A stretch of DNA of 12,398 nucleotides from the NCBI GenBank assembly GCA_011065165.1, contig JAAKFF010000047.1:1-12398 (forward strand), given 5' to 3'. The notes beneath the pieces are model-generated. The model saw nothing but the letters and a program-made list of their open reading frames with translations. It was not told where the DNA came from and ran no database searches. The stretch is from Chlamydiota bacterium. GTDB taxonomy: Bacteria > Chlamydiota > Chlamydiia > Chlamydiales > Simkaniaceae. Each line of letters opens with the position of its first letter. Position 1 is the stretch's first letter. The translations under genes and the position numbers were made by a program. Below are positions 1-12,398 of this stretch, piece after piece.

Positions 1-1
1 G

Positions 2-475
2 AAATATCTCCCAAAACTCAAAGAACTCACTACCATCCTAAAGACGTCTAGTACTGATAAAAAGGAGATTTATCAAGAACTTTATGGCATCTTTCTCCAG
101 TCGCATATGATCATGAATAAGATCTGTTCATGGAAGAGAGGAGTTCCTCTCAAATCTGCAGTGAATAGTATCTACAAAGAACTCCAAGTCTACTATAAGG
201 AGCAAAACATTACAGTGGATAAAAGCTTGATAAAAAATGAAGTGGAACAATTTAAACGCATAACGAAAGGAAAGAAGAATGCCAAAGTTCTTGAGTTCTT
301 CCGTCACCCTTTTCAAAGTCAAGTAGGGTGCAACAACCTAAATACCAATCCCCGTTTTGATATCTCCTCCCTAGAATGGTCTAAACAAAAACCCCCGGAA
401 ATTCGTGAAACGGGTATGTTCTCTTCAAACTCTGAGCGTCGCGCAGCTATTGAAGCCCTGGAAAGTAGAGTGTAA
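2..475 (+). CDS. Hypothetical protein, 5'-truncated. The reading frame is open from the first bases of the window, so it likely continues upstream.
   Basis: The frame starting at position 2 has no stop until 475. The ORF track's Met at 107 is internal. The product is basic and lysine-rich. I recognise no family. Confidence 0.4.
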   Translation, partial: KYLPKLKELTTILKTSSTDKKEIYQELYGIFLQSHMIMNKICSWKRGVPLKSAVNSIYKELQVYYKEQNITVDKSLIKNEVEQFKRITKGKKNAKVLEFFRHPFQSQVGCNNLNTNPRFDISSLEWSKQKPPEIRETGMFSSNSERRAAIEALESRV

Positions 476-888
476 TAGGTGTGTGACAATCAATGGCTCA
501 AAAACTTCCTAAAAGGTCTCATACCCTCGACTGCAACAAGAAGCTGTTGCAATGAGTTGTCTCTCACAGAAGAGACCATCCTTACAGTGGGATGAATCTA
601 GAGTCCTGAATAAAGTAGCGGGCTCGACAATGAAACAAAGGATAAATATCCGGCTTCTCTTTAAGAGCGGAGCTCATCCCTCTTCAGAGCTATAGATGAG
701 ACTCTTTGAACTATATAACAGGGATAGCTCCATCACAGAGAGCTTTTAACAAACAAGTTAGTATGTATTTATTACCCATTTGTCATAAATTGTAAAAACA
801 ACTATATAAAAATATAGGTTGGACAGGAAAGCTAGATCTTCTATATCCTTGTTGAACAGAAGAGAGCTAAGCAGGATGAAACAAGAAA

Positions 889-1113
889 ATGAGCGAAGTT
901 GGTAGAAATGATCCCTGCCCATGCGGATCAGGAAAAAAGTATAAGAAGTGTTGCGGATCAAGTAGTCCACCCAAGCAACGCAGCTTCTCTCCAGTAGAGG
1001 CTGAGCAGGGAAAACCCAGCATTCAAAGGATCACAGGTATGGTCTCCCAGATGCTGCGAAAAGGCGCTCCAGAAAGCCCCGATAAAAAAAACAGTGAAGA
1101 CTCTTCCTCTTAA
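889..1113 (+). CDS. Small SEC-C motif (SecA C-terminal-like metal-binding) domain protein.
   Basis: The N-terminus '[17 protein letters not shown]' is the classic SEC-C/YecA-type Cys-x-Cys...Cys-Cys zinc-binding motif. It is followed by a low-complexity Ser/Pro/Lys tail. The 74-aa stand-alone form is common in Chlamydiae-like genomes. The SD is weak. Confidence 0.55.
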
Positions 1114-1146
1114 ACCATCAATTTGCTATAAATGCCCTCTAACTTC

Positions 1147-1219
1147 GCTGGAGTAGCTCAATTGGTAGAGCATCCGACTTGTAATCGGACGGTTGAGGGT
1201 TCGATTCCTTTCTCCAGCA
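1147..1219 (+). tRNA. tRNA-Thr, anticodon TGT.
   Basis: A manual cloverleaf fold works. Acceptor stem is gctggag/ctccagc with discriminator A. D-stem is gctc/gagc. Anticodon stem is tccga/tcgga with loop cTTGTAa. T-loop is ttcgatt. Length is 73 nt, with no encoded CCA. Confidence 0.85.
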
Positions 1220-1229
1220 TTCCCTATAT

Positions 1230-1311
1230 GGGGGTGTCGCATAGTGGCAATTGCAATGGACTGTAAATCCATCGACTTCGGTCTCCGCCAGTTCGAGTCT
1301 GGCTGCCCCCA
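1230..1311 (+). tRNA. tRNA-Tyr, anticodon GTA (class II, long variable arm).
   Basis: Acceptor is gggggtg/tgccccc with discriminator A. Anticodon stem is atgga/tccat with loop cTGTAaa. The long variable arm is cgacttcggtctcc. T-arm is gccag-ttcgagt-ctggc. Length is 82 nt. The 3' half is duplicated at 9391-9447. Confidence 0.85.
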
Positions 1312-1315
1312 TTTC
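1259..1315 (+). repeat. attL: a 57-bp direct repeat from the tRNA-Tyr anticodon loop to 4 nt past the 3' end.
   Basis: It is identical base for base to 9391-9447. Mismatches flank it immediately on both sides (g1258 vs a9390, c1316 vs g9448). Confidence 0.85.
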
Positions 1316-1372
1316 CTCTATGAAAAACCCATATTAAAATGTGCCAAAATTCTATCGCCTAAAAGTAGCTGA

Positions 1373-1389
1373 GGCACACTCATGGCACA
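1373..1389. promoter_or_regulatory. GGCACA-N5-GGCACA (TGTGCC-N5-TGTGCC on the other strand), a candidate arm-type integrase or RDF binding site near attL.
   Basis: 'ggcacactcatggcaca'. The 18-mer AGGCACACTCATGGCACA at 1372-1389 is identical to 9257-9274. A single extra TGTGCC lies at 1340-1345. Confidence 0.4.
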
Positions 1390-1404
1390 CAACCTAATGA
1401 TTAA

Positions 1405-1944
1405 CTATGACAATTCTTGGCTTGCAAAGCTTTCTTCGGTTTTTTTGAAAGAGTATTGTAGATTCATTAATCTTTGCTTCAGGATTCCAGCTCTGTAGGA
1501 GAAAGCCGTCAAGCTCAAAACAAACAACATAAAAACTGGGTTCCATAATGTGATTTTTAAGATGAGTAAGTCCGACTCATCTTCCAAAGTGAAAAATGAG
1601 TTTAAGTTCTTCGCCTGTAATATGAGGAGCAAAAAGGAAAAGGACAAGAAAAGCAAGTCTTTAGAAATGATAGAAAAGGCATGCTTTATATAGTCAAAAT
1701 CAGTGTATTCAAGAGATTTATCTAGGAATTTATTTATAAAAAATTTCAATGCTTGCAGTAGAATAAATCCAAAAAGCGCTCCGATTAGAGTGAAAAAATA
1801 GAAAATATCTATAGCGTTAAATAAAAGAACTAAACCAAAAGTCGCATAAGCCGAAAATAATAGCCGTTTGCCAAACATTTTTATTTGCTTCCAATTGGGC
1901 GCTTTAGACTTTAAAAGCTGAAGAACATCTCTTTTTACTTCCAT
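1405..1944 (-). CDS. Small integral membrane protein (about 4 predicted TM helices). It is a candidate membrane toxin partner of the upstream Panacea-domain antitoxin.
   Basis: The 179-aa product has four hydrophobic stretches: LLFSAYATFGLVLLFNAI, FYFFTLIGALFGFILLQAL, LLFLSFSFLLLIL and PVFMLFVLSLTAFSY. It starts 14 nt downstream of the antitoxin stop on the same strand, with no SD, which suggests coupling. No recognisable family. Confidence 0.5.
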   Translation of the reverse strand: MEVKRDVLQLLKSKAPNWKQIKMFGKRLLFSAYATFGLVLLFNAIDIFYFFTLIGALFGFILLQALKFFINKFLDKSLEYTDFDYIKHAFSIISKDLLFLSFSFLLLILQAKNLNSFFTLEDESDLLILKITLWNPVFMLFVLSLTAFSYRAGILKQRLMNLQYSFKKTEESFASQELS

Positions 1945-1958
1945 ATGTAGGATAATTC

Positions 1959-2864
1959 TTATAGTGCTTGCGATTCTTTTAGAATACGTAGATTTCTTGC
2001 AGATTCATAGCTAATAAACGATCCTTCTTCTGTTTTTTTGTAAGCTTCTTCTTCATGCGATGTTTTGAGGATTTTTTGTGGTCCGAAGGTTTGATATAGC
2101 TTTAATATAAATTCCAATGTCTCTTTTTCTCTATCTTCGAATAAAGTTGGGTCTGATGGAATTAGTACTTCGTATTTATGATTGTTTATTTTTTTAAGAC
2201 ATCCAGCTTTGACCAAGGCTTCATAAATGGGGCTATATTGATCAGGACAAGGACCAAGTTTTAGGGGTATATATCGAGCTCCAGTTAAGCTTACTCCATA
2301 TTTCTTAAAATGGTAAAAATCGATGTAAAAATGCAGTTTGTTCAGATAAAGAATGGATTCTTTAGTATGCTCAACAAGAAATAAGGCAACATTTTTAAAT
2401 AACTGTAAGTTAAACTTTATATTACCGCTGTATATACCTGGTTCATCTCGCTTCCAGTGAACGCTTAAGAAATTCATTTCAGCCGCAGCTTCGTCACATT
2501 TAAGGCGGATAAGTTCATCTTGACTTGCATCCTGTATATAATATGTTTCCCATCTCTTGATGCTGGCTTCCCCAGCACCCAAATAGCGAGCAAACGCTGA
2601 TTGAGACATCCCTAATTCTTCTCGGTAGGCAATAATTTGAGAAGATGTAAGGAGATTGTGGTTTTCTTTATATTTATCTGCCGAAGCGCGTCGTAAAACA
2701 CTCATTTGTTCCGTATTCATAAGTGGGGTTTGGCAGTTTTCACAAACCGTGCAAGGAACAATAACTTCAAGTGTTTCCCCTTTTATCTCAGGGGTGAAAC
2801 GGATCTTTTTTTCAATAAATTGAGTTTTATTGCATTTCAAGCATTTCATAATTTCTTCTTTCAC
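1959..2864 (-). CDS. MqsA-like antitoxin (N-terminal zinc ribbon plus XRE-type HTH) fused to a C-terminal Panacea/DUF4065-like domain.
   Basis: The N-terminus 'MKCLKCNK...(27 aa)...CTVCENC' aligns by eye with E. coli MqsA 'MKCPVCHQ...CVHCEES'. The HTH 'LTSSQIIAYREELGMSQSAFARYLGAGEASIKRWE' aligns with MqsA 'LSLTQKEASEIFGGGVNAFSRYEKGNAQP'. The C-terminal roughly 190 aa carries 'ILYLNKLHFYIDFYHFKKYG...ARYIPLKLGPCPDQY'. That matches the GepA/SocA Panacea pattern (LxKLLYYAd...f.Aw.yGPV...Y). Its ATG overlaps the stop of the upstream mqsR-like gene by 4 bp (ATGA). Confidence 0.7.
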   Translation of the reverse strand: MKEEIMKCLKCNKTQFIEKKIRFTPEIKGETLEVIVPCTVCENCQTPLMNTEQMSVLRRASADKYKENHNLLTSSQIIAYREELGMSQSAFARYLGAGEASIKRWETYYIQDASQDELIRLKCDEAAAEMNFLSVHWKRDEPGIYSGNIKFNLQLFKNVALFLVEHTKESILYLNKLHFYIDFYHFKKYGVSLTGARYIPLKLGPCPDQYSPIYEALVKAGCLKKINNHKYEVLIPSDPTLFEDREKETLEFILKLYQTFGPQKILKTSHEEEAYKKTEEGSFISYESARNLRILKESQAL

Positions 2865-3253
2865 TCTTTCGAATATTTACATTTATGTAATGATACATAG
2901 TAAAAAAGGCCACCTTTGATAGAGAACTTCAAATACATCTGCTGTCTAAGCTGGTAGCTATACCATGAAAAAGCCCATAAGTCGTGATTTTCAATTTTAG
3001 ACTCATAGCTCTTAAGCGGCGGATAAGCACCTTTATAATCTTCTGGGTGTAGTTCATTGATTAATTTCGAAATTAACTCCCATATTTCATCTGTTTGCCC
3101 TATTTCTAGGTTCATTAATTCTCCCACCACTTTATCGGGGTTGGCAAATGCTACCCGTCTATTTTCTAGAGCTTCCTTTGCTTCTTTTAGTCGCTTGTCG
3201 ATTTCTCTATAAGTAGGACGCTTCACTATTCTTCCTGTATCAAATGACACCAT
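2861..3253 (-). CDS. mqsR: MqsR-family toxin (mRNA interferase-like).
   Basis: An eye alignment to E. coli MqsR spans the whole protein. KRPTYR matches KRTPHTR, EDYKGA matches DFYKSM, HDLWAFSWY matches HTIWQDVY, QMYLKFSI matches QVYLKITV and YYVSLHKCK matches LIVSFKEK. The ORF track starts at a TTG (3256); the first ATG is at 3253. Gene order is toxin then antitoxin, as in mqsRA. Confidence 0.65.
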   Translation of the reverse strand: MVSFDTGRIVKRPTYREIDKRLKEAKEALENRRVAFANPDKVVGELMNLEIGQTDEIWELISKLINELHPEDYKGAYPPLKSYESKIENHDLWAFSWYSYQLRQQMYLKFSIKGGLFYYVSLHKCKYSKE

Positions 3254-3373
3254 CAAATGATACCAAAAACCAATATTTTAAGTCAATTTATGAAAATCAA
3301 TAATTTAAATTACTTATATTAAATATATTAAGTGCAAAAGGTTAGCTAATTCACATGCAAAAAAATATTTTAT

Positions 3374-3390
3374 TGTGCCTCAAATGTGCC
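3374..3390. promoter_or_regulatory. TGTGCC-N5-TGTGCC direct repeat upstream of the integrase promoter. It is a candidate integrase arm-type site or operator.
   Basis: 'tgtgcctcaaatgtgcc'. It has the same half-site and 11-bp register as the sites at 1373-1389 and 9258-9274, in the opposite orientation. It lies about 75 bp upstream of the -35. Confidence 0.35.
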
Positions 3391-3464
3391 TTTCCATTAT
3401 GTAAAGTGCATAATCAGCTTATATTAAGTATCTTGAAAAGAGTAATCGAAAGATTCATACTCTA

Positions 3465-3493
3465 TTGACTGATAAATCTCGTCTTTGTATGAT
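3465..3493 (+). promoter_or_regulatory. Sigma-70-type promoter of the integrase gene (TTGACT-N17-TATGAT).
   Basis: -35 TTGACT is at 3465-3470. -10 TATGAT is at 3488-3493. The spacer is exactly 17 bp. The ORF-track ATG at 3485 sits inside the -10 hexamer. Confidence 0.55.
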
Positions 3494-3517
3494 AGCCAAA
3501 AAATTCTGAGAAAACTC

Positions 3518-4585
3518 ATGGCCAATATACAAGAACGCAAATCGAAAGACGGAAAAACTACCTATAGAGTCCAGATTAGGCTAAAGGGATATCCTTCTCA
3601 AACAGCAACCTTTTCAAGAAAGACTGATGCAAGGAAGTGGGTGCAGCAGATTGAGAGCGCGATTCGAGAAGGACGTCATTTCAAAACAGCCGAGTCCAAA
3701 AAACATACCCTTGGGGACCTTATTGATAGGTACATTAAAACAGTAGTACCTGGAAAAAAGCAGTATGGAGTCACTCAAACAGCCCAACTTCTCTGGTGGA
3801 AGCAAGAGCTTGGGTCTTTTCTCTTGTCTGACATCACTCCAGCACTTATTGCGGAGAAAAGAGACAAACTTCTTCAGGGTTTCACCTATCGTAAGACTAA
3901 GAGGTCTCCATCGACTGTTGTTAGATACTTGGCGGCACTTTCGCATGCTTTTAGCGTGGCTGTTAGAGAATGGGGATGGATTGAAGATTCGCCGGTGAGA
4001 AAAGTCTCGAAGCCTTCGGAGCCTAGAGGACGAGTAAGATTTTTGAGCAGTGATGAGAGAGAAAGACTCTTAGATGTTTGTAAACAGAGTGCTCATCCTT
4101 ATTTGTTCACAGTTGTGGTTTTAGCAATTTCCTCTGGGATGCGTTACTCAGAAATTATGAAACTTACTTGGTCGGATGTCGATTTTGCTAAAAAGCGCAT
4201 CACGTTACATGAAACGAAGAATGGGGAAAGAAGGGTTGTCCCTGTTACAGGTTTTGCTTATGAGCTACTCAAAAAGCATGAAAAGAGTCGACGCATGGAT
4301 ACCTTGCTGCTATTTCCAGCACAAAAGGGACAAAACCCACAAAAGCCTGCTGTTTTGCGTTCTGCTTGGAATCGAGCGCTGGAGCAAGCAAATATTTATA
4401 ACTTTAGATTTCATGACCTAAGACATTCTTGTGCGAGTTATTTAGCAATGAATGGAGCTTCCATTGCAGAGATAGCTGAAGTTCTTGGCCACAAAACACT
4501 TCAAATGGTAAAACGGTATGCGCATCTTTCTGAAGCACATACCGCTTCGGTTATTGAAAGCATGAATAAGAAAATTTTTGGATGA
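3518..4585 (+). CDS. int: Tyrosine site-specific recombinase / P4-type phage integrase.
   Basis: The C-terminal catalytic signature 'HDLRHSCASYLAMNG...LGHKTLQMVKRYAHL' gives the R..HxxR..Y tyrosine recombinase motifs. The N-terminus 'KDGKTTYRVQIRLKG...FSRKTDARKW' resembles the P4-integrase arm-binding domain. The start is moved to the ATG at 3518 (MANIQ...) because ATG 3485 lies within the promoter -10. Confidence 0.9.
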   Translation: MANIQERKSKDGKTTYRVQIRLKGYPSQTATFSRKTDARKWVQQIESAIREGRHFKTAESKKHTLGDLIDRYIKTVVPGKKQYGVTQTAQLLWWKQELGSFLLSDITPALIAEKRDKLLQGFTYRKTKRSPSTVVRYLAALSHAFSVAVREWGWIEDSPVRKVSKPSEPRGRVRFLSSDERERLLDVCKQSAHPYLFTVVVLAISSGMRYSEIMKLTWSDVDFAKKRITLHETKNGERRVVPVTGFAYELLKKHEKSRRMDTLLLFPAQKGQNPQKPAVLRSAWNRALEQANIYNFRFHDLRHSCASYLAMNGASIAEIAEVLGHKTLQMVKRYAHLSEAHTASVIESMNKKIFG

Positions 4586-4588
4586 ATC

Positions 4589-5191
4589 ATGAATGATGAA
4601 AGGAAGAAAGCTAACCTGGAGCAGGAAAAGAGGAGAAACCCATTAAATCTTAAGTGGCTGAAAATAGATTATTTAACACCACCTCAAGCTACATTAATAT
4701 ACTATGGTATTGAACCTTCACGTGATGATTCAAGAAATATGCAAATTATTCAAGCCGTTGATTTCCTTGGAGTGCTTCAGGTTCTTACTGCCTCGGAGTT
4801 TATTTTGGTTCGATTAAATGCCATTAGATTTCCAGAGTTTGTAGCATGGCTGGAAGAAAAAGGGTTTGAGATTCCATCGCATCTAGAATCGATGGCAGAT
4901 ACTGCACGTTTGCAAATAAGAAAAGATGCCCCACTAAAAGGTGAGTTATTAGAGCTTGACACTAGGACGCTTAGGCCTGAGCAGAGATTTAAGTTTTTTT
5001 TACGTTGTTGGGCAGGAGACTATTGGAAGTTAGGTGGCAATATATCTGCAAGTGAGCTTGTAGAATGTAATAATGATTTTAAAAAGACTCGTAGCGATTG
5101 GGAAAACCGTACGAAGAAAAAATATGATGATGATACAATCAAAGGCTGGATTTCGGATATGAGTCCTAAGTCGAAAAAGAACGTATCCTAA
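4589..5191 (+). CDS. Hypothetical protein, tightly coupled to the integrase (3-nt gap).
   Basis: The 200-aa ORF starts 'ggatgaatcATG' directly after the int stop. It has a charged N-terminus and C-terminus. No family recognised. Confidence 0.45.
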   Translation: MNDERKKANLEQEKRRNPLNLKWLKIDYLTPPQATLIYYGIEPSRDDSRNMQIIQAVDFLGVLQVLTASEFILVRLNAIRFPEFVAWLEEKGFEIPSHLESMADTARLQIRKDAPLKGELLELDTRTLRPEQRFKFFLRCWAGDYWKLGGNISASELVECNNDFKKTRSDWENRTKKKYDDDTIKGWISDMSPKSKKNVS

Positions 5192-5429
5192 CGTTTGGTT
5201 TTTTTACCCTCTCGTTAAGTAACTTCATCCCCTTCATCGGTGGAAAATACCCCTCCGCACAACAAGGTATCCCCATCGATAGTATTAATCCTTAGCTCTC
5301 ATTCATAGAGACACCCCCCCTGTTTGGCGAGGAGGGGGTACTGTTATCTTCCAAATCTAGAATTAATTTCCATAATTCGTACTAATAAAGATTGTTCTTA
5401 ATTGAAACCCTAAACCCATGAGGTAAATT

Positions 5430-5660
5430 ATGGAAATAGTACAAAAAAACAAAACTGGACGGCTTTTGTCTGTAGCCCAGTTTGCAATAGAACACCCTGC
5501 TTTTAGCCAGCCAGCTTTGAGGCATCTAATATTTGATGCTGAAGCTAATGGCTTTTGGAAGGTAGTTAGGCGTATCGGAAAGAGAAAAATTTTGCTGGAT
5601 GAGCAAGCTTTTTTCGATTGGGTTAACGAGCAGAATAAAGGAGGTCAAAATGAGTCCTAG
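5430..5660 (+). CDS. AlpA/excisionase-family helix-turn-helix DNA-binding protein. It is a putative regulator or recombination directionality factor.
   Basis: The 76-aa product has 'LLSVAQFAIEHPAFSQPALRHLIFDAEANGFWKVVRRIGKRKILLDEQAFFDWV'. This fits the Xis/AlpA MerR-like wing-HTH pattern (..LS..e.a...gvs..t.yrl...g.fP..ik.G.r.rw...e...Wl). An SD 'gagg' lies 9 nt upstream. Confidence 0.55.
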   Translation: MEIVQKNKTGRLLSVAQFAIEHPAFSQPALRHLIFDAEANGFWKVVRRIGKRKILLDEQAFFDWVNEQNKGGQNES

Positions 5661-6000
5661 AGATATGAGATTGTTAAGAAGTTTGGTCGAAGAGGAAAGG
5701 GTATTTGTACGTGACCTTCGCTCTCGAATTGGGTCTTTAAACCCTGCACAGAATGCACTGTCTTTAAGAAACCAGGAGTGGAGGATTCAAACCGACTATA
5801 TAGGTATTCATGATAGGGACGGAGTCCTCTGTCGACCTGGCTATTACTGGATGGAAGAGAGTGAAAGGGAAAGAGCTCGAATCTTTCTTGAAAAGGCTGA
5901 AAGAGCGGCTGCAACCGCTCCATCAGCAAAACTAGATATTTCAGCTCGCGAAAGCAATAAAACATCTAATTCGAAAGATACCATAGGAGGAAAAGGATGA
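5650..6000 (+). CDS. Hypothetical protein.
   Basis: The ATG at 5650 is preceded by a strong SD 'aaaggaggtcaaaATG'. It overlaps the stop of the previous gene. The ORF track's 5599 start is rejected in favour of this SD-supported start. The product is Arg/Glu-rich and has no recognised domain. Confidence 0.5.
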   Translation: MSPRDMRLLRSLVEEERVFVRDLRSRIGSLNPAQNALSLRNQEWRIQTDYIGIHDRDGVLCRPGYYWMEESERERARIFLEKAERAAATAPSAKLDISARESNKTSNSKDTIGGKG

Positions 6001-7451
6001 ACAGCTTTTCTTCCAATCAAGCCCCCATTCCTTTGGGGGCTGCTTCTATTCCTAAGTGGCCTCAAGATATTTTCCCTGATGAGCTTCAGTCTTTTTTAAA
6101 TGAATTGTCAGCGTCAACGGAAACACCTTTGGAGTTAGCGGCACTTTCTTGTTTTTCAATCCTTGCAACAGCGGCACAAGGAAAATTTTGCGTCCAAATC
6201 GATGCGGGGTACTCTGAGCCGGTCAATATCTGGACGTCTGTTGCACTTCCTTCAGGGAGTCGCAAAACGAGTGTATTCAATGCATTGATGGAGCCCTTGA
6301 TTAGCTGGGAGCGGCAAAAGAAGGAGGAATTAGGGCCTAAGGTAGTTCAGGCTCAATCTGAAAAGAGAACTATGGAGGCAAGGATTAAGGAGTTGCGGCG
6401 CCAGGCTGCATCAGCTAAGTGCGATGAATTTAAAACGCTGAGCCAAGAAATAACTCTTCTGGAATCATCCATGGAAGAGGGAATTATTATTCCACATCTA
6501 TGGACTGCTGACGTGACAGCTGAAACTTTGGCTGTTCTTATGACTGAAAATAAAGAAAGGATGGCAATTTTATCTGATGAAGCAGGAATTTTTGACATTA
6601 TAGGAGGGAGATATTCAAATGGAATTCCAAATTTAGATATTTTTTTGCAAGGGCATGCCTGTAGCCCTTCTCGGGTAAACCGGAAAGGCAAGCCTCCTAT
6701 TTTTCTAGAGAAAGCAACATTATCCGTTGGATTAGTGCCACAACCTGATGTTTTGCAAGGGTTGACAAAGAATCCTCTTTTTCGAGGGAGGGGCTTGCTT
6801 GCTCGATTCTTGTATGCCATGCCTATTTCGAATTTAGGAAATCGCACTTTAGATACTACTCCCATGTCATCATCTTCTTGTGCTAGGTATGAGCAAATCA
6901 TCCATTCCATCCTTGATATTGATGGGAGTAATAAGGTCATTAGCCTTTCTCCTGAGGCATATTCAGAGTGGCATGTATATGCAGTAGCGATTGAGATTCA
7001 AATGAGCGAAGGGGGGCCTCTATGCTTTATGCGGGACTGGGCTTCGAAATTACCTGGGGCCATAGCCAGGTTAGCTGGGTTGCTGCATATTTGTCGTCAC
7101 TCATGTGGAGAGCCGGAACTGGTCGCTGTTAGCATAGTGGATATAAAAGCAGCAATTCGCCTTGGGCATTGCTTAATTGAACATGCAAAGATAGCTTTTG
7201 ATTCTATGGGTGCAGACCCAGCTTTAGATGGAGCAAGGGTAGTCTTAGGATGGATTAAAAGGACCCAACCAGAGCGATTTACCTTCCGTGACTGCCACTA
7301 TGCCCTCAAAAGTCGATTTAAGCGTGCGAAGGACCTTGCTCCATCTATAGAGGTCTTGAAAGAGAGAAATCATATCTTTGAAAAAGATGAGGAAAATAAG
7401 AAGCCCTGCCGTCCCAGTAGAGTTTTTCTGCCAAACCTTATGATTTATTAA
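5997..7451 (+). CDS. DUF3987 (YfjI-like) protein typical of AlpA/P4-integrase islands.
   Basis: The N-terminal region 'FPDELQSFLNELSASTETPLELAALSCFSILATAAQGKF...SEPVNIWTSVALPSGSRKTSVFNALMEPL' matches the recalled DUF3987 pattern (FP..L...v..vae..q.P..LAa...L.a.aaa.qg...EP.NLyt.vvappGeRKS.v). It has a degenerate Walker-A-like 'PSGSRKTS'. Its start ATGA overlaps the previous stop. Confidence 0.65.
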   Translation: MNSFSSNQAPIPLGAASIPKWPQDIFPDELQSFLNELSASTETPLELAALSCFSILATAAQGKFCVQIDAGYSEPVNIWTSVALPSGSRKTSVFNALMEPLISWERQKKEELGPKVVQAQSEKRTMEARIKELRRQAASAKCDEFKTLSQEITLLESSMEEGIIIPHLWTADVTAETLAVLMTENKERMAILSDEAGIFDIIGGRYSNGIPNLDIFLQGHACSPSRVNRKGKPPIFLEKATLSVGLVPQPDVLQGLTKNPLFRGRGLLARFLYAMPISNLGNRTLDTTPMSSSSCARYEQIIHSILDIDGSNKVISLSPEAYSEWHVYAVAIEIQMSEGGPLCFMRDWASKLPGAIARLAGLLHICRHSCGEPELVAVSIVDIKAAIRLGHCLIEHAKIAFDSMGADPALDGARVVLGWIKRTQPERFTFRDCHYALKSRFKRAKDLAPSIEVLKERNHIFEKDEENKKPCRPSRVFLPNLMIY

Positions 7452-7520
7452 GGGTATGGATGAGGTTTTGTGGCTTTTGTCCCTTTTGTTCTAAATATCA
7501 ACCAAAATCGAGAAGATAAT

Positions 7521-8138
7521 ATGCAAAATAAGAATGAATTAGCAGCTGAAAAGAGCTCCCATCTAATACGACCAGAAGCATCCCCTGAGCCCTTTCTAAG
7601 GTTCATCTATGTGAAGAATCCAGAAACGGGAGAGAAGGCTTTAAAAACAGTGGAGCTTTCTGATGGGACGTCTCCTAACGACTCTGGCTTTTTAGAAGGG
7701 GTATTAAAGGCCTTGAAGCGAGCAACAGGTAGTGACAACCCTGAAGTAGCTGAGAGAATTATTTCAGATACAGCTTGGGGGATGTCAAGTAAGGATTCTG
7801 AAGAGAGAATGCATGCTGTTAATACGCTCCTTCCTTCACTGAATCCTCTAGATGAGTCTGAAGCACTATTGCTTGGGCAATTTCTAGCTTTAAGAGACTC
7901 TGGTATGCAGTGTCTGCGTAGAGCAAGTGGTGCGGAAATGCTTTATCACATCAAAGAACTCTATCAGTTGAGCATTAAGCTTATGCGATGTGCAAATGAG
8001 ACAATGCAAACTTTATTGAAATATCGCTCGGGTGGTAAGCAGTTGATTCAAGTCGTCCATGTTTCGGGAGATGGAAAGGCTATTATTGCAAATGAAATGA
8101 ATCTAGGAGAGGGGATCAAAAATAATAATAACGTATAA
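7521..8138 (+). CDS. Hypothetical protein (island cargo).
   Basis: An ORF of 222 aa from 7470, or 205 aa from the ATG at 7521 (MQNKNEL...). No family recognised. It lies in the same orientation and has a short gap to the flanking genes. Confidence 0.4.
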   Translation: MQNKNELAAEKSSHLIRPEASPEPFLRFIYVKNPETGEKALKTVELSDGTSPNDSGFLEGVLKALKRATGSDNPEVAERIISDTAWGMSSKDSEERMHAVNTLLPSLNPLDESEALLLGQFLALRDSGMQCLRRASGAEMLYHIKELYQLSIKLMRCANETMQTLLKYRSGGKQLIQVVHVSGDGKAIIANEMNLGEGIKNNNNV

Positions 8139-8172
8139 CCCCATGTATCATTGAGGCAGGAGGAATTGTATA

Positions 8173-8430
8173 ATGAAAGAGCGGCGATGCCGAGCATATT
8201 CAAAGCGCTCCAAACAGAGATGCAAAAACTGGGCCTTAAGGGGAAAGGGTGTTTGCCGGTTTCATGGAGGGAATTCAACAGGGCCTAAAAGTTCTGAAGG
8301 GAAGGAAAGAGTGTCTAGAGCGCACTTTAAGCATGGTTTGTGTTCATCTTCTTTTCGAAGCAAACTGCTGAGCATGAGAAATTTTATTAAAATTAGTGAT
8401 CGGTTATTGAAAAATTTTACTTACAATTAG
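8173..8430 (+). CDS. HGGxSTG-motif small cysteine-rich protein.
   Basis: 'CRAYSKRSKQRCKNWALRGKGVCRFHGGNSTGPKSSEGKER' gives the C-x..C...C.(R/F)HGGxSTGP.(S/T).EG signature. That family is widespread on phages and plasmids. A strong SD 'aggagg' lies 10 nt upstream. Confidence 0.55.
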   Translation: MKERRCRAYSKRSKQRCKNWALRGKGVCRFHGGNSTGPKSSEGKERVSRAHFKHGLCSSSFRSKLLSMRNFIKISDRLLKNFTYN

Positions 8431-8508
8431 TTTAAAATGTTTTAGTTGTTTCATTTTAATTAATAGTAATGTAAAATCTCTCTAAATAATTCACATTGAA
8501 ATGAACTT

Positions 8509-9003
8509 ATGCATAGACAGTCAAAGAAAATAGTCGTTCTAATCCTATCTGCATGTCTTCTTGTGTTGGCTGGCTGCTCTACTCAATATGGTTCAGAAGG
8601 ATTTATTGGAGGGGGATTTTCGGAAACGCTAATGGCTGCTGATACCTATATTGTTACCTTCAAAGGGAATGGGTTCACTTCATATGAGAAGGCAATCAAA
8701 TATGCTCTCAGAAGAGCTTCTGAGCTGACCCTTGAAAATGGGTACAAATACTTCTCCATTAACTCTTCAATGGACCATTCGAAACAGGTGGCTTACTCAA
8801 ATGCTTCCGCGAATTCTTCCGGTCAGATTGATGTTTATAGGTGCTATAACTCGGTTCTAGGCCAATATAAAGGTTCAGGCTCAAGAAGTTCCTACTCGGG
8901 AATTATTACCAAACCACGAGTCAGCATAGGAATTAAGTGTTATCGAGAGAAGCCAAAAGATATAGAAGTCATTGACGCTAGGTTTTTCTTAGCAAGTAAC
9001 TAA
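8509..9003 (+). CDS. Putative lipoprotein.
   Basis: The N-terminus 'MHRQSKKIVVLILSACLLVLAGCSTQ' has a basic n-region, a hydrophobic core and an LAGC lipobox. It has its own AT-rich upstream region. Confidence 0.55.
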   Translation: MHRQSKKIVVLILSACLLVLAGCSTQYGSEGFIGGGFSETLMAADTYIVTFKGNGFTSYEKAIKYALRRASELTLENGYKYFSINSSMDHSKQVAYSNASANSSGQIDVYRCYNSVLGQYKGSGSRSSYSGIITKPRVSIGIKCYREKPKDIEVIDARFFLASN

Positions 9004-9027
9004 CCTTTTTTTGAACTAGGAGTAATC

Positions 9028-9228
9028 ATGGAAAATAATGAAGAATGGGAAGATGAGACAGAACATGATTTCTCGTCAATCCTTGTTTTTTTGGTAATTG
9101 CAGGTTTTGTAATATGGGTAGGGAGTAATGTTTACTCTGCATTTGAGTGTGAAGCTGAGGAATATTTTTTCGAATCAAAAGAGAACATAAAAGCTTTTTT
9201 TAGGATTATCTTTCAAGGCAGAAGATAA
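9028..9228 (+). CDS. Small single-pass membrane protein.
   Basis: The 66-aa product has an acidic N-terminus and one TM helix, 'ILVFLVIAGFVIWVGSNVY'. An SD 'aggag' lies 8 nt upstream. It sits 24 nt after the lipoprotein stop. Confidence 0.4.
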   Translation: MENNEEWEDETEHDFSSILVFLVIAGFVIWVGSNVYSAFECEAEEYFFESKENIKAFFRIIFQGRR

Positions 9229-9257
9229 GAAATAACGTAGGCTTTAATTTTGTTGAA

Positions 9258-9274
9258 GGCACACTCATGGCACA
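9258..9274. promoter_or_regulatory. GGCACA-N5-GGCACA, a candidate arm-type site near attR.
   Basis: 'ggcacactcatggcaca' is identical to 1373-1389. It lies about 117 bp inside the island from attR. It is embedded in the inverted repeat CACTCA-N11-TGAGTG. Confidence 0.4.
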
Positions 9275-9390
9275 TTTCTGAGTGAAAACCAAGGAAACAT
9301 TGCGAATATTTAGGATAAATTTTAGTTCTTAAGTTTTTGGTTGTTATTTCTTTGAATATCATTAGCTATCATGAGTTGTCCTCAAGAAAA

Positions 9391-9447
9391 GACTGTAAAT
9401 CCATCGACTTCGGTCTCCGCCAGTTCGAGTCTGGCTGCCCCCATTTC
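9391..9447 (+). repeat. attR: an orphan copy of the tRNA-Tyr 3' half (anticodon loop to 3' end plus 4 nt), followed by a T-tract.
   Basis: It is a 57/57 identity with 1259-1315. No 5' half of the tRNA is present. It is followed by 'gttttttt'. Confidence 0.85.
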
Positions 9448-9493
9448 GTTTTTTTAGGTGTTTGGTGCTCTCTTTTTAGTGTCTTTGTCCTAG

Positions 9494-9601
9494 CCCTCCT
9501 CGCCAAGCTCATTCAAGCTTGCCGTCGTCGCGTTAGAACAAATCCATCAAAAAATAGATGCCCCAAACACCCAAAAAAACTCATGGGGGCAGCCGCTGCC
9601 C
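9494..9601. repeat. Copy 1 of an imperfect direct repeat of roughly 100 bp. It ends in a GC hairpin and a T-tract.
   Basis: 'cctcgccaagctcattcaagcttgccgtcgtcgcgttagaaca...acacccaaaaaaactcatgggggcagccgctgccc'. The core matches copy 2 at 9744-9835 with few mismatches. It has the terminal palindrome GGGCAGC-C-GCTGCCC. Confidence 0.6.
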
Positions 9602-9612
9602 TTTCTTTGTTT
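9587..9612 (+). terminator. Rho-independent terminator-like hairpin.
   Basis: Perfect 7-bp GC-rich stem 'gggcagc c gctgccc' followed by 'tttctttgttt'. Similar structures occur at 9703-9718 (gggagc tgtc gctccc) and at 9961-9987 (gggagc agcc gctccc, then 'ctattggttttt'). Confidence 0.4.
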
Positions 9613-9743
9613 ATGGTGGGTTTTTTTAGAGGAGTTTGAGAAGTAGTTAGAGGAGCTGTTAGAGGGGTTGTTAATTCTTCGTTAAAAAGCCAATATCTTC
9701 TTGGGAGCTGTCGCTCCCATTGAAGATTTTGGCTTTCTATCCT

Positions 9744-9835
9744 AAGGCTCCTCGCCAAGCTTATCCAAGCTTGCCGTCGTCGCGGTAGGATAAAGCTGAA
9801 CACCCACTACCTCATGGGGGACTGCCGCTATCTAC
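9744..9835. repeat. Copy 2 of the imperfect direct repeat of roughly 100 bp.
   Basis: 'ggctcctcgccaagcttatccaagcttgccgtcgtcgcggtaggataa...acacccactacctcatgggggactgccgctatc'. Confidence 0.6.
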
Positions 9836-10029
9836 CATCAAGATCACTCTAGACGACGCTACGCTCCTTATTAAGGACTGAGTTATATGAGTCAAATAAA
9901 TAATGAGTTCTGTGCTATATGACTCATTTTGACTCAGATGAGTGATAGATAAACCCTCATGGGAGCAGCCGCTCCCCTATTGGTTTTTAAGGGCGTTTTG
10001 TCTATTATTTTGAAGGAAGAGGGAGGATT

Positions 10030-10539
10030 ATGATTCAAATTATTTATTATACTCCAGTTTATGTCTGGCCTCTATTTGCCTATCTGCTTTGGATAGGGTG
10101 GAGAGCCAGGAGAAGCTATGTCGCTTCTTGGAAAACGCTTCTAATTATGCCCACCATTTTGTTTGTCTGGTCAATTTATAGGGCTTTCTCGCATTTTGAG
10201 GTCGTCTCGATCTCTTTATGGGCGGTCAGCATAACTATCGGGATAGTGCTGGGAGCTTTGACCACTCGCAGGCTCGATCTGAGGTTTGACAAGCGACGAA
10301 GAGTGGTTGAAATTGCTGGCAATTGGACTCCGCTACTTCTGTCGCTTTCGATCTTCTCTTTGCGCTACTTTCTTGGAGCAACGTATGTGCTGCATCCTGA
10401 GCTTGCAGGAAGTGCTATCCTCATGGGAGTAGAGTGCATTGCTACTGTTATCTCTGGCACGTTTACAGGCAGGCTTATTGGCTATTGGCAACGAGCTAAA
10501 GAATCTCCGCATTGCGATCTTGCTGAAGCGAATGGTTGA
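10030..10539 (+). CDS. Multi-pass membrane protein, hypothetical.
   Basis: The 169-aa product has a strong SD 'gagggagg' 6 nt upstream. It has at least 4 hydrophobic helices, for example LFAYLLWIGW and LWAVSITIGIVLGALT. Composition is notably more GC-rich than the island. Confidence 0.6.
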   Translation: MIQIIYYTPVYVWPLFAYLLWIGWRARRSYVASWKTLLIMPTILFVWSIYRAFSHFEVVSISLWAVSITIGIVLGALTTRRLDLRFDKRRRVVEIAGNWTPLLLSLSIFSLRYFLGATYVLHPELAGSAILMGVECIATVISGTFTGRLIGYWQRAKESPHCDLAEANG

Positions 10540-10540
10540 T

Positions 10541-11302
10541 CTATTTAGATGCGTTTAGGGTTATGAACCAACCCCAATCATCTGGAAAAAATCTGTGTAT
10601 GAATTTGGGGATCTTATCTGTATCATATTTTGTTAGAAGGGGTGTGGCTTCAACTGTACTGAATTGGCGGAATAGATTATTTAATTCAGAGAGTGAATAC
10701 GCTTTGGTGCCTATACTTTCAACGTGATTCCAAATCACATCTCTAGCGCTACGCCAAGGTTTGCCAGCGAGTAAACTGTGCTTTATCCAGAGTTTGATCA
10801 CTCTTAATGAGCGGCGACCGTACATCATCCCAATAAAGAGCCCACTCTTTTTTAACACCCGATGTATTTCACTGATGATGAGTTCGGGATTTTGCGAGTG
10901 GTGGATTACCCCCCAGGAGTAGACTACATCGAAGGTGTTATCGTCATAGGGAAGCTGCTCTGCATCAATTCGTTTCAACTCAGATGATAAGTTGTGCATC
11001 TCAAGACGTTTTTTTGTGGTCAAAATTGCTGCATCGGTCAGATCGACTCCAAAACATTCTGCTCCTGCGCGAGCCCACTGTAGATGATCGGTACCCGCGC
11101 CCACGCCGACCTCTAAGATTTTCTTGCCATGATGGCGAGTAAATTGGGCAGAGGAGTGAATATAGGGTTCTATCTCATACCGATGTCTTTCAACCTTATC
11201 GAAATATTCGAATGAATATTCTTCAGTAGGACCGGTAATAGTTTGTGAGGTGCCACATGGCTCTTTTTCCCAATAGGAGCGAACCCTCTTATTTAAATCC
11301 AT
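10541..11302 (-). CDS. Class I SAM-dependent methyltransferase.
   Basis: Motif I 'ILEVGVGAGTD' is present. Post-I is acidic (FGVDLTD). Motif II-like 'FDVVYSWGVIHH' and motif III 'LKKSGLF' are also present. Its start abuts the SPFH gene stop (11302/11303). Confidence 0.75.
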   Translation of the reverse strand: MDLNKRVRSYWEKEPCGTSQTITGPTEEYSFEYFDKVERHRYEIEPYIHSSAQFTRHHGKKILEVGVGAGTDHLQWARAGAECFGVDLTDAAILTTKKRLEMHNLSSELKRIDAEQLPYDDNTFDVVYSWGVIHHSQNPELIISEIHRVLKKSGLFIGMMYGRRSLRVIKLWIKHSLLAGKPWRSARDVIWNHVESIGTKAYSLSELNNLFRQFSTVEATPLLTKYDTDKIPKFIHRFFPDDWGWFITLNASK

Positions 11303-12262
11303 CTATCTGGCATGTGCTCCTTTTGAATCGAGGGTGGGAAGCTGAAGGAGAAGCCCTGCTTGATTCCCGCCGAGGAGTGTGGTGGGATATCTTCCGTTCC
11401 ACTGTTTGATCGCTTGGTACTCAATGAGTTGTGGGGTAATTGAGGCGGCAATCTCTCGGTTGGCTTTTGCAAGGGCTGTCGCCTCTTTGATGATCTTATA
11501 AGCTTCGGCGTCGGCGTCGATGCGCTGTTTTTCTGAATTAGCGTTTGCTTGAGTGACCCTTATTATCTTTTCGGTCTCTGCATCGATCGCTTTGATGCGC
11601 TGGTTTTTCATCGCCTGTTTTTCGATCATTGCGAGGCGCTGCTCTTCTTGTTTTGCTAGTTGCACCTCTTCAACTTTTTTGCGTACGATCTGGGGCAATT
11701 CGATATTGCGGATTTGGATGGCATTTAGGCGGAAGGGCCCACCGGACAATTTCTCTCTCAGACTAATCTCGATCTCATTTCCGAGGGAGGTGCGCTTCAC
11801 AGCGATCTCTTCGGCTTGGTATTGACCTGTCACATTCCTCACGACATCGCGCACAATGGGATTAATCAGCTTCTCAAAGTAGTTTTTGCCATACTTAACA
11901 AGGATCGTCTGGGCTTCTTTAGGAATGGGTGCATATTGAACAGTGATCTCGATTCCTATCGCCAGATTTTTACTATCGAGGACGATAATTTTTGGTTTTG
12001 TAATCAATCCCTCGCTTAGATTTTTTTCTCTTTCTCCCTGGTAATTGGCAGTCTGCATCTTCGTGTCAATGACACTGATCTGTTGAATAAAGGGGAGTTT
12101 AAAGTGTAGACCGGGCTCCTGCACTTCAGTGCTGTACTTTCCAAAAGTGGATAGAACACCGACGGTTCCGCTGTTGATGGTATAGACGCCATTAAAGATA
12201 ATAATGGCAAGAAGAAGAAGGGGCATGAAGATGAAAATATGTTTGGGTTTGAGTTCGTTCAT
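11303..12262 (-). CDS. SPFH/band-7 (prohibitin/HflC-like) membrane protein.
   Basis: It has an N-terminal TM helix. 'INSGTVGVLSTFGKY...PGLHFKLPFIQQISVIDTKMQT' is the typical SPFH-domain start. The C-terminus is a coiled-coil rich in E, K and Q. An SD 'gagga' lies upstream. Confidence 0.8.
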   Translation of the reverse strand: MNELKPKHIFIFMPLLLLAIIIFNGVYTINSGTVGVLSTFGKYSTEVQEPGLHFKLPFIQQISVIDTKMQTANYQGEREKNLSEGLITKPKIIVLDSKNLAIGIEITVQYAPIPKEAQTILVKYGKNYFEKLINPIVRDVVRNVTGQYQAEEIAVKRTSLGNEIEISLREKLSGGPFRLNAIQIRNIELPQIVRKKVEEVQLAKQEEQRLAMIEKQAMKNQRIKAIDAETEKIIRVTQANANSEKQRIDADAEAYKIIKEATALAKANREIAASITPQLIEYQAIKQWNGRYPTTLLGGNQAGLLLQLPTLDSKGAHAR

Positions 12263-12398
12263 TGGGGAGATCCTCTGGTTGTTACTTTTTTGGTTGGAGT
12301 ATAGCGTATAGGGGATTTTTATGCACCTGCTTGTAATTTTATTCTTCTTTCTCTAATGAGGTGATAATGCCCACTGTTTATGAAGAGCAGGTCTTAGT

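Follow-up and report, generated by a model that had tools for sequence, protein, structure and literature searches.

Antitoxins that carry a Panacea domain (PanAs) and their partner toxins (PanTs) form toxin–antitoxin (TA) pairs that were catalogued by Kurata et al. in 2022, who named the domain. MqsR-like is the commonest known toxin domain among the partners (n = 90), and helix-turn-helix (HTH) domains occupy the N-terminus of 343 PanAs; membrane-disrupting PanTs were also validated, and accessory third genes were found in small fractions of the PanAT loci, probably with no general role in toxicity or neutralisation (PMC8832971). One such pair, MqsR(D2):PanA of Bacillus fungorum, whose antitoxin is composed of a zinc-binding domain (ZBD), an HTH and a Panacea domain, was dissected experimentally by Ernits et al. 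in 2023 (PNAS). The ZBD or ZBD-HTH part neutralises MqsR while the Panacea domain or HTH-Panacea part fails to, Y97 is a catalytic residue of the toxin, and the Panacea domain was proposed to be a sensor (PMC10440598). Here we describe a related locus in a 12,398-nt stretch of DNA from a Chlamydiota bacterium of the Simkaniaceae (assembly GCA_011065165.1, contig JAAKFF010000047.1, positions 1–12,398, hereafter the window). Three minus-strand genes are placed between a tRNA-Tyr gene, which contains the left attachment site (attL) of a genomic island, and the gene of a tyrosine integrase; the layout proposed in a first-pass annotation, with open reading frames (ORFs) at 3256..2861, 2864..1959 and 1944..1405, was confirmed. 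We consider it probable that they constitute a toxin-first MqsR-like:PanA type II module (genes 1 and 2) at the attL end, followed by an optional accessory gene (gene 3).

The locus agrees with the MqsR:PanA pairs of B. fungorum and L. rossiae and with the 90 loci of Kurata et al. in that the toxin gene comes first and the antitoxin domains run in the order ZBD, HTH, Panacea. A toxin of predicted MqsR fold with a conserved tyrosine of the catalytic type is a further likeness. Unlike those pairs, the toxin of the window is too divergent to be recognised by PF15723 or hhalign and belongs to a largely chlamydial family, and the pair occupies the attL end of a tRNA island; in a few lineages a membrane-protein gene comes after it. 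The earlier suggestion that the architecture had not been described is no longer tenable, because MqsR:ZBD-HTH-Panacea antitoxins were predicted in 2022 (PMC8832971) and dissected by experiment in 2023 (PMC10440598). The pair is thus a sequence-divergent addition to an experimentally characterised MqsR:PanA class.

A chlamydial member had in fact been catalogued. Dataset S1 of the 2022 survey lists, as untested, a pair from Parachlamydiaceae bacterium HS-T3 composed of an HTH-PanA and a 'hypothetical protein' in T|A order with a −4 overlap; the toxin is assigned to cluster T50, together with two proteins from deltaproteobacteria (PMC8832971). The HS-T3 genome is locus L049 of our survey. Its proteins are 54% (gene 2) and 55% (gene 1) identical to those of the window, and the catalogued pair very probably belongs to the same family. 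The catalogue gives neither an MqsR-like classification of the toxin nor a third gene. A chlamydial PanAT cluster with an unclassified toxin is now placed, at the fold level, in the MqsR:ZBD-HTH-Panacea class, in a phylum whose TA biology has hardly been studied.

Gene 2 (1959..2864, minus strand) encodes the PanA-type antitoxin. Residues 8–130 (2475..2843, minus strand), which comprise a CxxC...CxxC zinc ribbon and an XRE-type HTH, match the MqsA family model TIGR03830 of NCBIfam with 78.1 bits (cutoff 61.8); the Pfam HTH_3 profile is matched with 25.0 bits (cutoff 23), and PF15731, with 28.5 bits, narrowly misses its cutoff of 30. Residues 174–276 (2037..2345, minus strand) match the DUF4065/SocA-like profile PF13274 (SocA_Panacea) with 53.9 bits (cutoff 25.7) over profile positions 1–113 of 113. 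The fusion of an MqsA-like part to a Panacea domain, as first annotated, is therefore borne out by these matches. The zinc-ribbon cysteines C8, C11, C41 and C44 are all invariant across 21 homologues, as are many residues of the Panacea domain. In the E. coli MqsR/MqsA system (PDB 3HI2; PF15723/PF15731) the canonical MqsA ends after the HTH (~131 aa). Gene 2 has the MqsA profile, zinc ribbon and HTH of this antitoxin but departs from the two-domain form that ends at ~130 aa, with ~170 additional residues that carry the Panacea domain. A homologue search found 316 relatives; among the best 120 of them nearly all are 288–303 aa long and all carry PF13274, and the matches listed come mainly from Chlamydiota (Neptunochlamydia, Simkaniaceae, Waddliaceae and Parachlamydiaceae). 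Because the listed homologues share the same full-length fusion, the fusion is real and occupies a single reading frame, and the frameshift artefact that had been named as a risk is ruled out. The PHROGs search returned for gene 2 unannotated or regulator families only, and a PADLOC search of genes 1, 2 and 3 gave zero matches.

The genomic context of gene 2 was surveyed with one genome per species. Relatives of gene 2 are encoded in 187 stretches, and locus counts given below refer to the best 80 of the 187. A gene 1 homologue lies directly upstream of gene 2 in 73 of the 80 loci, usually with overlapping stop and start codons; in several of the other seven the upstream sequence is missing. 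The pair agrees with the definition of Kurata et al., a conserved adjacent partner no more than 100 nt away in at least two species, and gene 2 has the properties of a PanA, namely PF13274 above threshold and such a partner. In the window, gene 2 was expected to start within an ATGA overlap. The coupling to gene 1 holds, either through an overlap or through an 11-nt spacer; the overlap reads GTGA. The longest ORF of gene 2 starts from GTG 2864 (301 aa), and an alternative ATG at 2849, 11 nt past the gene 1 stop, gives 296 aa. ATG 2849 is more likely to be the true start, since gene 2 of close relatives is called from the equivalent ATG, 11–12 nt past the toxin stop.

Gene 1 (2861..3226, minus strand; longest ORF to TTG 3256) is MqsR-like by its predicted fold and its context, though its sequence gave no significant match to an MqsR profile. 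An AlphaFold2 model of the protein (predicted local distance difference test score, pLDDT, 83.6) retrieved E. coli MqsR (3hi2_B) as the top Foldseek match, with a probability of 1.00 and a template-modelling score of 0.72 on the target, ahead of HigB, YafQ and RelE; MqsR is the best structural match by two methods. It is the structure comparison that settles the MqsR relationship, because the sequence searches gave nothing significant. The first-pass annotation had called gene 1 an MqsR homolog from an alignment made by eye; the fold and the context support the call, whereas every sequence profile, including PF15723, does not.

Several results weigh against an MqsR-type toxin. Gene 1 was unrecognised by Pfam, NCBIfam, PADLOC and PHROGs. 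Searches of PDB sequences by phmmer and hmmsearch, including one with the gene 1 family profile, did not recover MqsR or anything relevant, and only 3 of 28 gene 1 relatives touched PF15723, with a best E-value of 0.15. Alignment with E. coli MqsR by hhalign was non-significant, with probabilities of 4% for a 16-sequence profile and 0.2% for a 28-sequence profile. The 4% alignment spans the C-terminal W...Y..YLKF stretch in the same register as the earlier alignment by eye. The proposed catalytic residues of E. coli MqsR we take to be K56, Q68, Y81 and K96. In the non-significant hhalign alignment, Y81 is paired with the invariant Tyr of the gene 1 MYLKF motif (Y98 of the 121-aa form) and the Q68 position with Ala; extending the register by eye places K96 opposite an invariant His and K56 opposite a variable Lys. 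Given the replacements of Q68 by Ala and K96 by His in that alignment, the ribonuclease (RNase) activity of gene 1 is only putative.

A reading in which gene 1 has the MqsR fold but is inactive or repurposed, and in which the pair is a regulator with its partner rather than a growth-arresting TA system, would take in the non-significant sequence match, the differences at two of four proposed catalytic positions, and an N-terminal helical part longer than that of MqsR. The protein as a whole, at 121 aa, exceeds E. coli MqsR (98 aa) by ~20 aa. We nevertheless find this reading highly unlikely. Gene 1 is under strong purifying selection, with a ratio of nonsynonymous to synonymous divergence (dN/dS) of ~0.11, and the Tyr, the His and the Lys-rich C-terminal strands are invariant in the family. 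The toxin-first coupling with an MqsA-type antitoxin recurs in 73 of 80 loci, and the related architecture was toxic and neutralised in experiments (PMC10440598). We favor the reading in which gene 1 would be a divergent MqsR-like RNase toxin, with the fold taken from the model.

The start of gene 1 is most likely GTG 3226, preceded by the Shine-Dalgarno (SD) sequence AGGAAG, rather than TTG 3256. The former gives 121 aa, as in the homologues, and the latter 131 aa; the shorter form is preferred because the block of promoter, SD and GTG is conserved in relatives. The candidate promoter, on the minus strand at 3237..3286 together with an inverted repeat, has a −35 element TTGACT at 3286–3281 and a TG-extended −10 element TATCAT at 3262–3257. 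These elements were located by a consensus scan, in which the count of promoters was no higher than in shuffled sequences, and the promoter is called because of its conservation across lineages and not because of the scan. The inverted repeat GTATCA-N15-TGATAC (3237–3263) spans the −10 element. Promoter, inverted repeat, SD and the GTG just before KRPT are kept as one block in L082, L005, L002, L003, L006 and L007, where the flanking DNA has diverged and whose proteins are only 60–90% identical. A conserved candidate promoter and operator is thereby defined for the chlamydial pair, and the inverted repeat is likely to be the operator for the HTH of gene 2. It differs in sequence from the operator of E. 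coli MqsR/MqsA, a system from which the window also differs in having a toxin unrecognisable by sequence. A terminator scan of 1300–3520 found none, and transcription of gene 3 probably occurs together with that of genes 1 and 2.

By analogy with E. coli MqsA and B. fungorum MqsR:PanA, the N-terminal zinc ribbon of gene 2 would neutralise gene 1, and the HTH would dimerise and repress the operon at the inverted repeat overlapping the −10 element, so that the module may be autoregulated. The Panacea domain would then be an accessory, possibly sensory part rather than the neutraliser. The module as a whole probably serves to stabilise the island, to defend against phage, or both, and gene 3 would stand outside the core circuit of toxin neutralisation, being lineage-restricted and of a family not tied to Panacea.

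The island itself was proposed in the first-pass annotation and has the layout of a tRNA-integrated genomic island, in which direct repeats of a tRNA 3′ end flank a tyrosine integrase. A perfect 57-nt direct repeat bounds ~8.1 kb; its attL copy (1259–1315, plus strand) is the 3′ part of the tRNA-Tyr gene (1229–1312, plus strand; ARAGORN and Rfam tRNA), and the attR copy (9391–9447, plus strand) marks the far end. A tRNA-Thr gene (1147–1219) adjoins tRNA-Tyr. The integrase gene (3485–4585, plus strand; PF00589, 124.7 bits) is divergent from the TA operon. Similar positions recur in other genomes. In 12 of the 80 loci an opposite-orientation tRNA gene for Leu, Met, Tyr or Arg lies downstream of gene 2 at a distance of 1 kb or less, and in several more the distance is at most 4 kb. 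Locus L004 repeats the full layout of tRNA (here tRNA-Met), gene 2, gene 1 and a divergent integrase, which is 34% identical to that of the window. The gene 1–gene 2 pair is a recurrent passenger of the attL end of chlamydial islands at different tRNA genes. This recurrence at tRNA-proximal island ends in environmental Chlamydiota suggests a role in island maintenance or defence and is consistent with, but no proof of, an addiction or defence function. As a separate observation, the 3′ end of the pair lies 85–900 nt from an opposite-orientation tRNA gene, mostly tRNA-Leu, in loci such as L004, L017, L034, L036, L042 and L046.

Gene 3 (1405..1944, minus strand) starts 14 nt past the gene 2 stop without an SD and encodes a 179-aa helical membrane protein of ~4 transmembrane (TM) segments, as had been annotated. 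Four hydrophobic segments are present, and the AlphaFold2 model (pLDDT 76) has helices at residues 18–44, 47–74, 80–117 and 125–178. No match to gene 3 was found in Pfam, NCBIfam, PADLOC or PHROGs, and structure comparison of the model gave uninformative matches. A dN/dS of ~0.08 against a 72%-identical relative shows gene 3 to be a genuine gene, and it belongs to a small family of helical membrane proteins. An exhaustive HMMER search of 1.84 billion representatives recovered only 12 that belong to the family, and a search of JGI metagenomes with a subset of the gene 3 alignment found no relatives. The notion that gene 3 is an orphan absent from all relatives was dropped after metagenome contigs of the nearest relatives and the exhaustive HMMER search revealed the family and three linked lineages.

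The closest tripartite system is MqsRAC, a variant of MqsRA with a documented role in phage defence, in which the product of the third gene is a SecB-like chaperone that the antitoxin needs in order to function (Vassallo et al. 2022; PMC9519451). The window likewise combines an MqsR/MqsA-type pair with a third gene. Unlike in MqsRAC, gene 3 encodes a helical membrane protein without SecB similarity, and most loci of the family lack it. A toxin–antitoxin–chaperone (TAC) reading of gene 3 was tried and ruled out, as the protein is an all-helical membrane bundle.

The first-pass annotation had instead proposed that gene 2 is a bifunctional hub antitoxin with one toxin on each side, so that the zinc ribbon would neutralise gene 1 and the Panacea domain a membrane-disrupting gene 3. 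The order of a PanA followed on the same strand, after 14–36 nt, by a small TM protein is that of the validated membrane-toxin PanAT pairs (PMC8832971), and the Panacea domain, being dispensable for MqsR neutralisation in B. fungorum (PMC10440598), would be functionally 'free' for such a task. Gene 3 homologues also follow gene 2 in the window, L081 and L082–84. The comparative data, however, do not support the proposal. In E. coli STEC O31, Bartonella apis and Helicobacter sp., where a Panacea gene likewise closely precedes a TM-helix protein gene, the TM protein is the conserved partner and the only toxin (PMC8832971); in the family of the window the MqsR-like protein takes the place of conserved partner, and the TM gene occurs sporadically, in most cases away from PanA. 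Strong conservation of the Panacea domain extends over at least 187 genomic loci, yet a gene of the gene 3 type, sought by tblastn and family hidden Markov model (HMM) within 4 kb of gene 2, was found in 0 of 80 loci, and no conserved third gene exists there, the neighbors downstream of gene 2 being heterogeneous. A Panacea protein is not adjacent in 7 of 10 distinct contexts of the gene 3 family, several of whose members stand alone with non-coding upstream DNA, which is unexpected of a toxin that needs a co-encoded antitoxin. Typical small membrane toxins are smaller than the members of this family, which have 142–188 aa and four helices. Since the Panacea domain is conserved in many lineages without gene 3 (80 of 80 loci) and the gene 3 family mostly occurs without Panacea, the hub proposal is disfavored, and we judge it very improbable.

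Adjacency of gene 3 to a PanA is narrow, being limited to the window (14 nt) and two close metagenomic lineages. In L081 the order is gene 2 C-terminus, a 72%-identical gene 3 homologue and tRNA-Tyr. L082–84 have a gene 2 of 91% identity with, 36 nt downstream, a gene 3 homologue of 188 aa (48% identical); the flanks differ from those of the window, and the 560 nt available contain no tRNA. L100 (gene 2 87% identical) and L002 (76%), both of which carry the gene 1–gene 2 pair at the same tRNA-Tyr/tRNA-Thr/SEC-C locus, lack gene 3. DNA similarity of the window to L081, L082–84, L100 and L002 stops at the 3′ end of gene 2. The family is not associated with PanA wherever it is found: PanA is lacking in L085/86, L087–89, L090–92, L093, L094–96, L097 and L098. 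Lone members with non-coding upstream DNA lie near a MobA/TraI relaxase gene (L085), near Imm40-type genes (L087) and beside a DDE transposase gene (L093). In L098 the member follows a 79-aa ORF among housekeeping genes, and in L097 (1988–2551) it follows, on the same strand, a 77-aa gene without a family and an 83-aa DUF7660 gene, which might be another two-gene module.

Gene 3 is also a separate evolutionary unit, because it has diverged far more than genes 1 and 2. In the comparison of the window with L082 (1405–1944 versus L082:6930–7496), the proportion of synonymous differences (pS) in gene 3 is 0.84, which is saturated, with dN 0.53; for genes 1 and 2, pS is 0.43–0.46 and dN ~0.06. The gene 3 alleles are either much older than the adjoining TA pair or have been swapped independently.

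These same data supply the points that weigh against gene 3 as a merely optional accessory. In three lineages, with at least two kinds of flanking DNA, homologues of 72% and 48% identity lie 14–36 nt past gene 2. Since the pS of gene 3 is greatly above that of genes 1 and 2, its association with gene 2 is either of long standing or has arisen repeatedly, a hint of a link in function. In L094 (1384–3419; tRNA-Tyr 5449–5532), moreover, a member of the gene 3 family lies 20 nt past an AbiEi_4/AbiEii pair, that is, after a second, unrelated TA type, at the same tRNA-Tyr/tRNA-Thr/SEC-C hotspot. It could be argued from this that members of the family are accessory effectors or modulators, for example a membrane effector or sensor of phage defence, that join different TA or abortive-infection operons and are not neutralised by Panacea. 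The same-strand arrangement of a TA pair and, 14–36 nt behind it, a member of the gene 3 family, seen for two unrelated TA types at one hotspot, fits such a role, and so do the alleles that are far more diverged than the adjoining TA genes, as high allele divergence is often seen for defence-related genes. The pattern is nonetheless confined to about four lineages, other members come after non-TA genes or are solitary, near relaxase, transposase or housekeeping genes, PADLOC found no matches, and the association may be a matter of chance in a shared hypervariable hotspot. We regard an effector of this kind as unlikely. A combined scheme, in which the family is a membrane component recruited by TA or abortive-infection operons and is checked or triggered here through Panacea and elsewhere with AbiEi/AbiEii, so that one antitoxin would serve two effectors, appears improbable. 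With gene 3 taken as the optional accessory of an MqsR-like:PanA module, its sporadic occurrence offers a handle on the task of Panacea in an antitoxin that neutralises the toxin through another domain, and the comparative data make a rescue of gene 3 by Panacea unlikely.

The remaining cargo of the island includes a DUF3987 protein (298 bits) and several ORFs without a Pfam family (the set occupies 5997–7451, 4589–5191, 7470–8138 and 8173–8430); the former is probably of the replication or helicase type found in mobile elements. Each end of the island has, a short way in, one copy of a perfect 18-nt direct repeat, AGGCACACTCATGGCACA (1372–1389, 57 nt from attL, and 9257–9274, ~117 nt from attR), and these copies could be candidate arm-type binding sites for the recombinase or an excisionase. 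In the Simkaniaceae metagenome-assembled genome L002, a homologue (2973–3383, aligned with window 8611–9021) of the 164-aa lipoprotein-like ORF of the window (8509–9003) adjoins gene 1. No integrase or DUF3987 genes lie between the two in L002, and no second att copy was found in the fetched DNA, which suggests an island that has decayed or lost internal parts. Just beyond attR, a 68-nt imperfect direct repeat (79%) is found at 9475–9542 and 9727–9794, with a spacing of 252 nt, amid overlapping ORFs of both strands.

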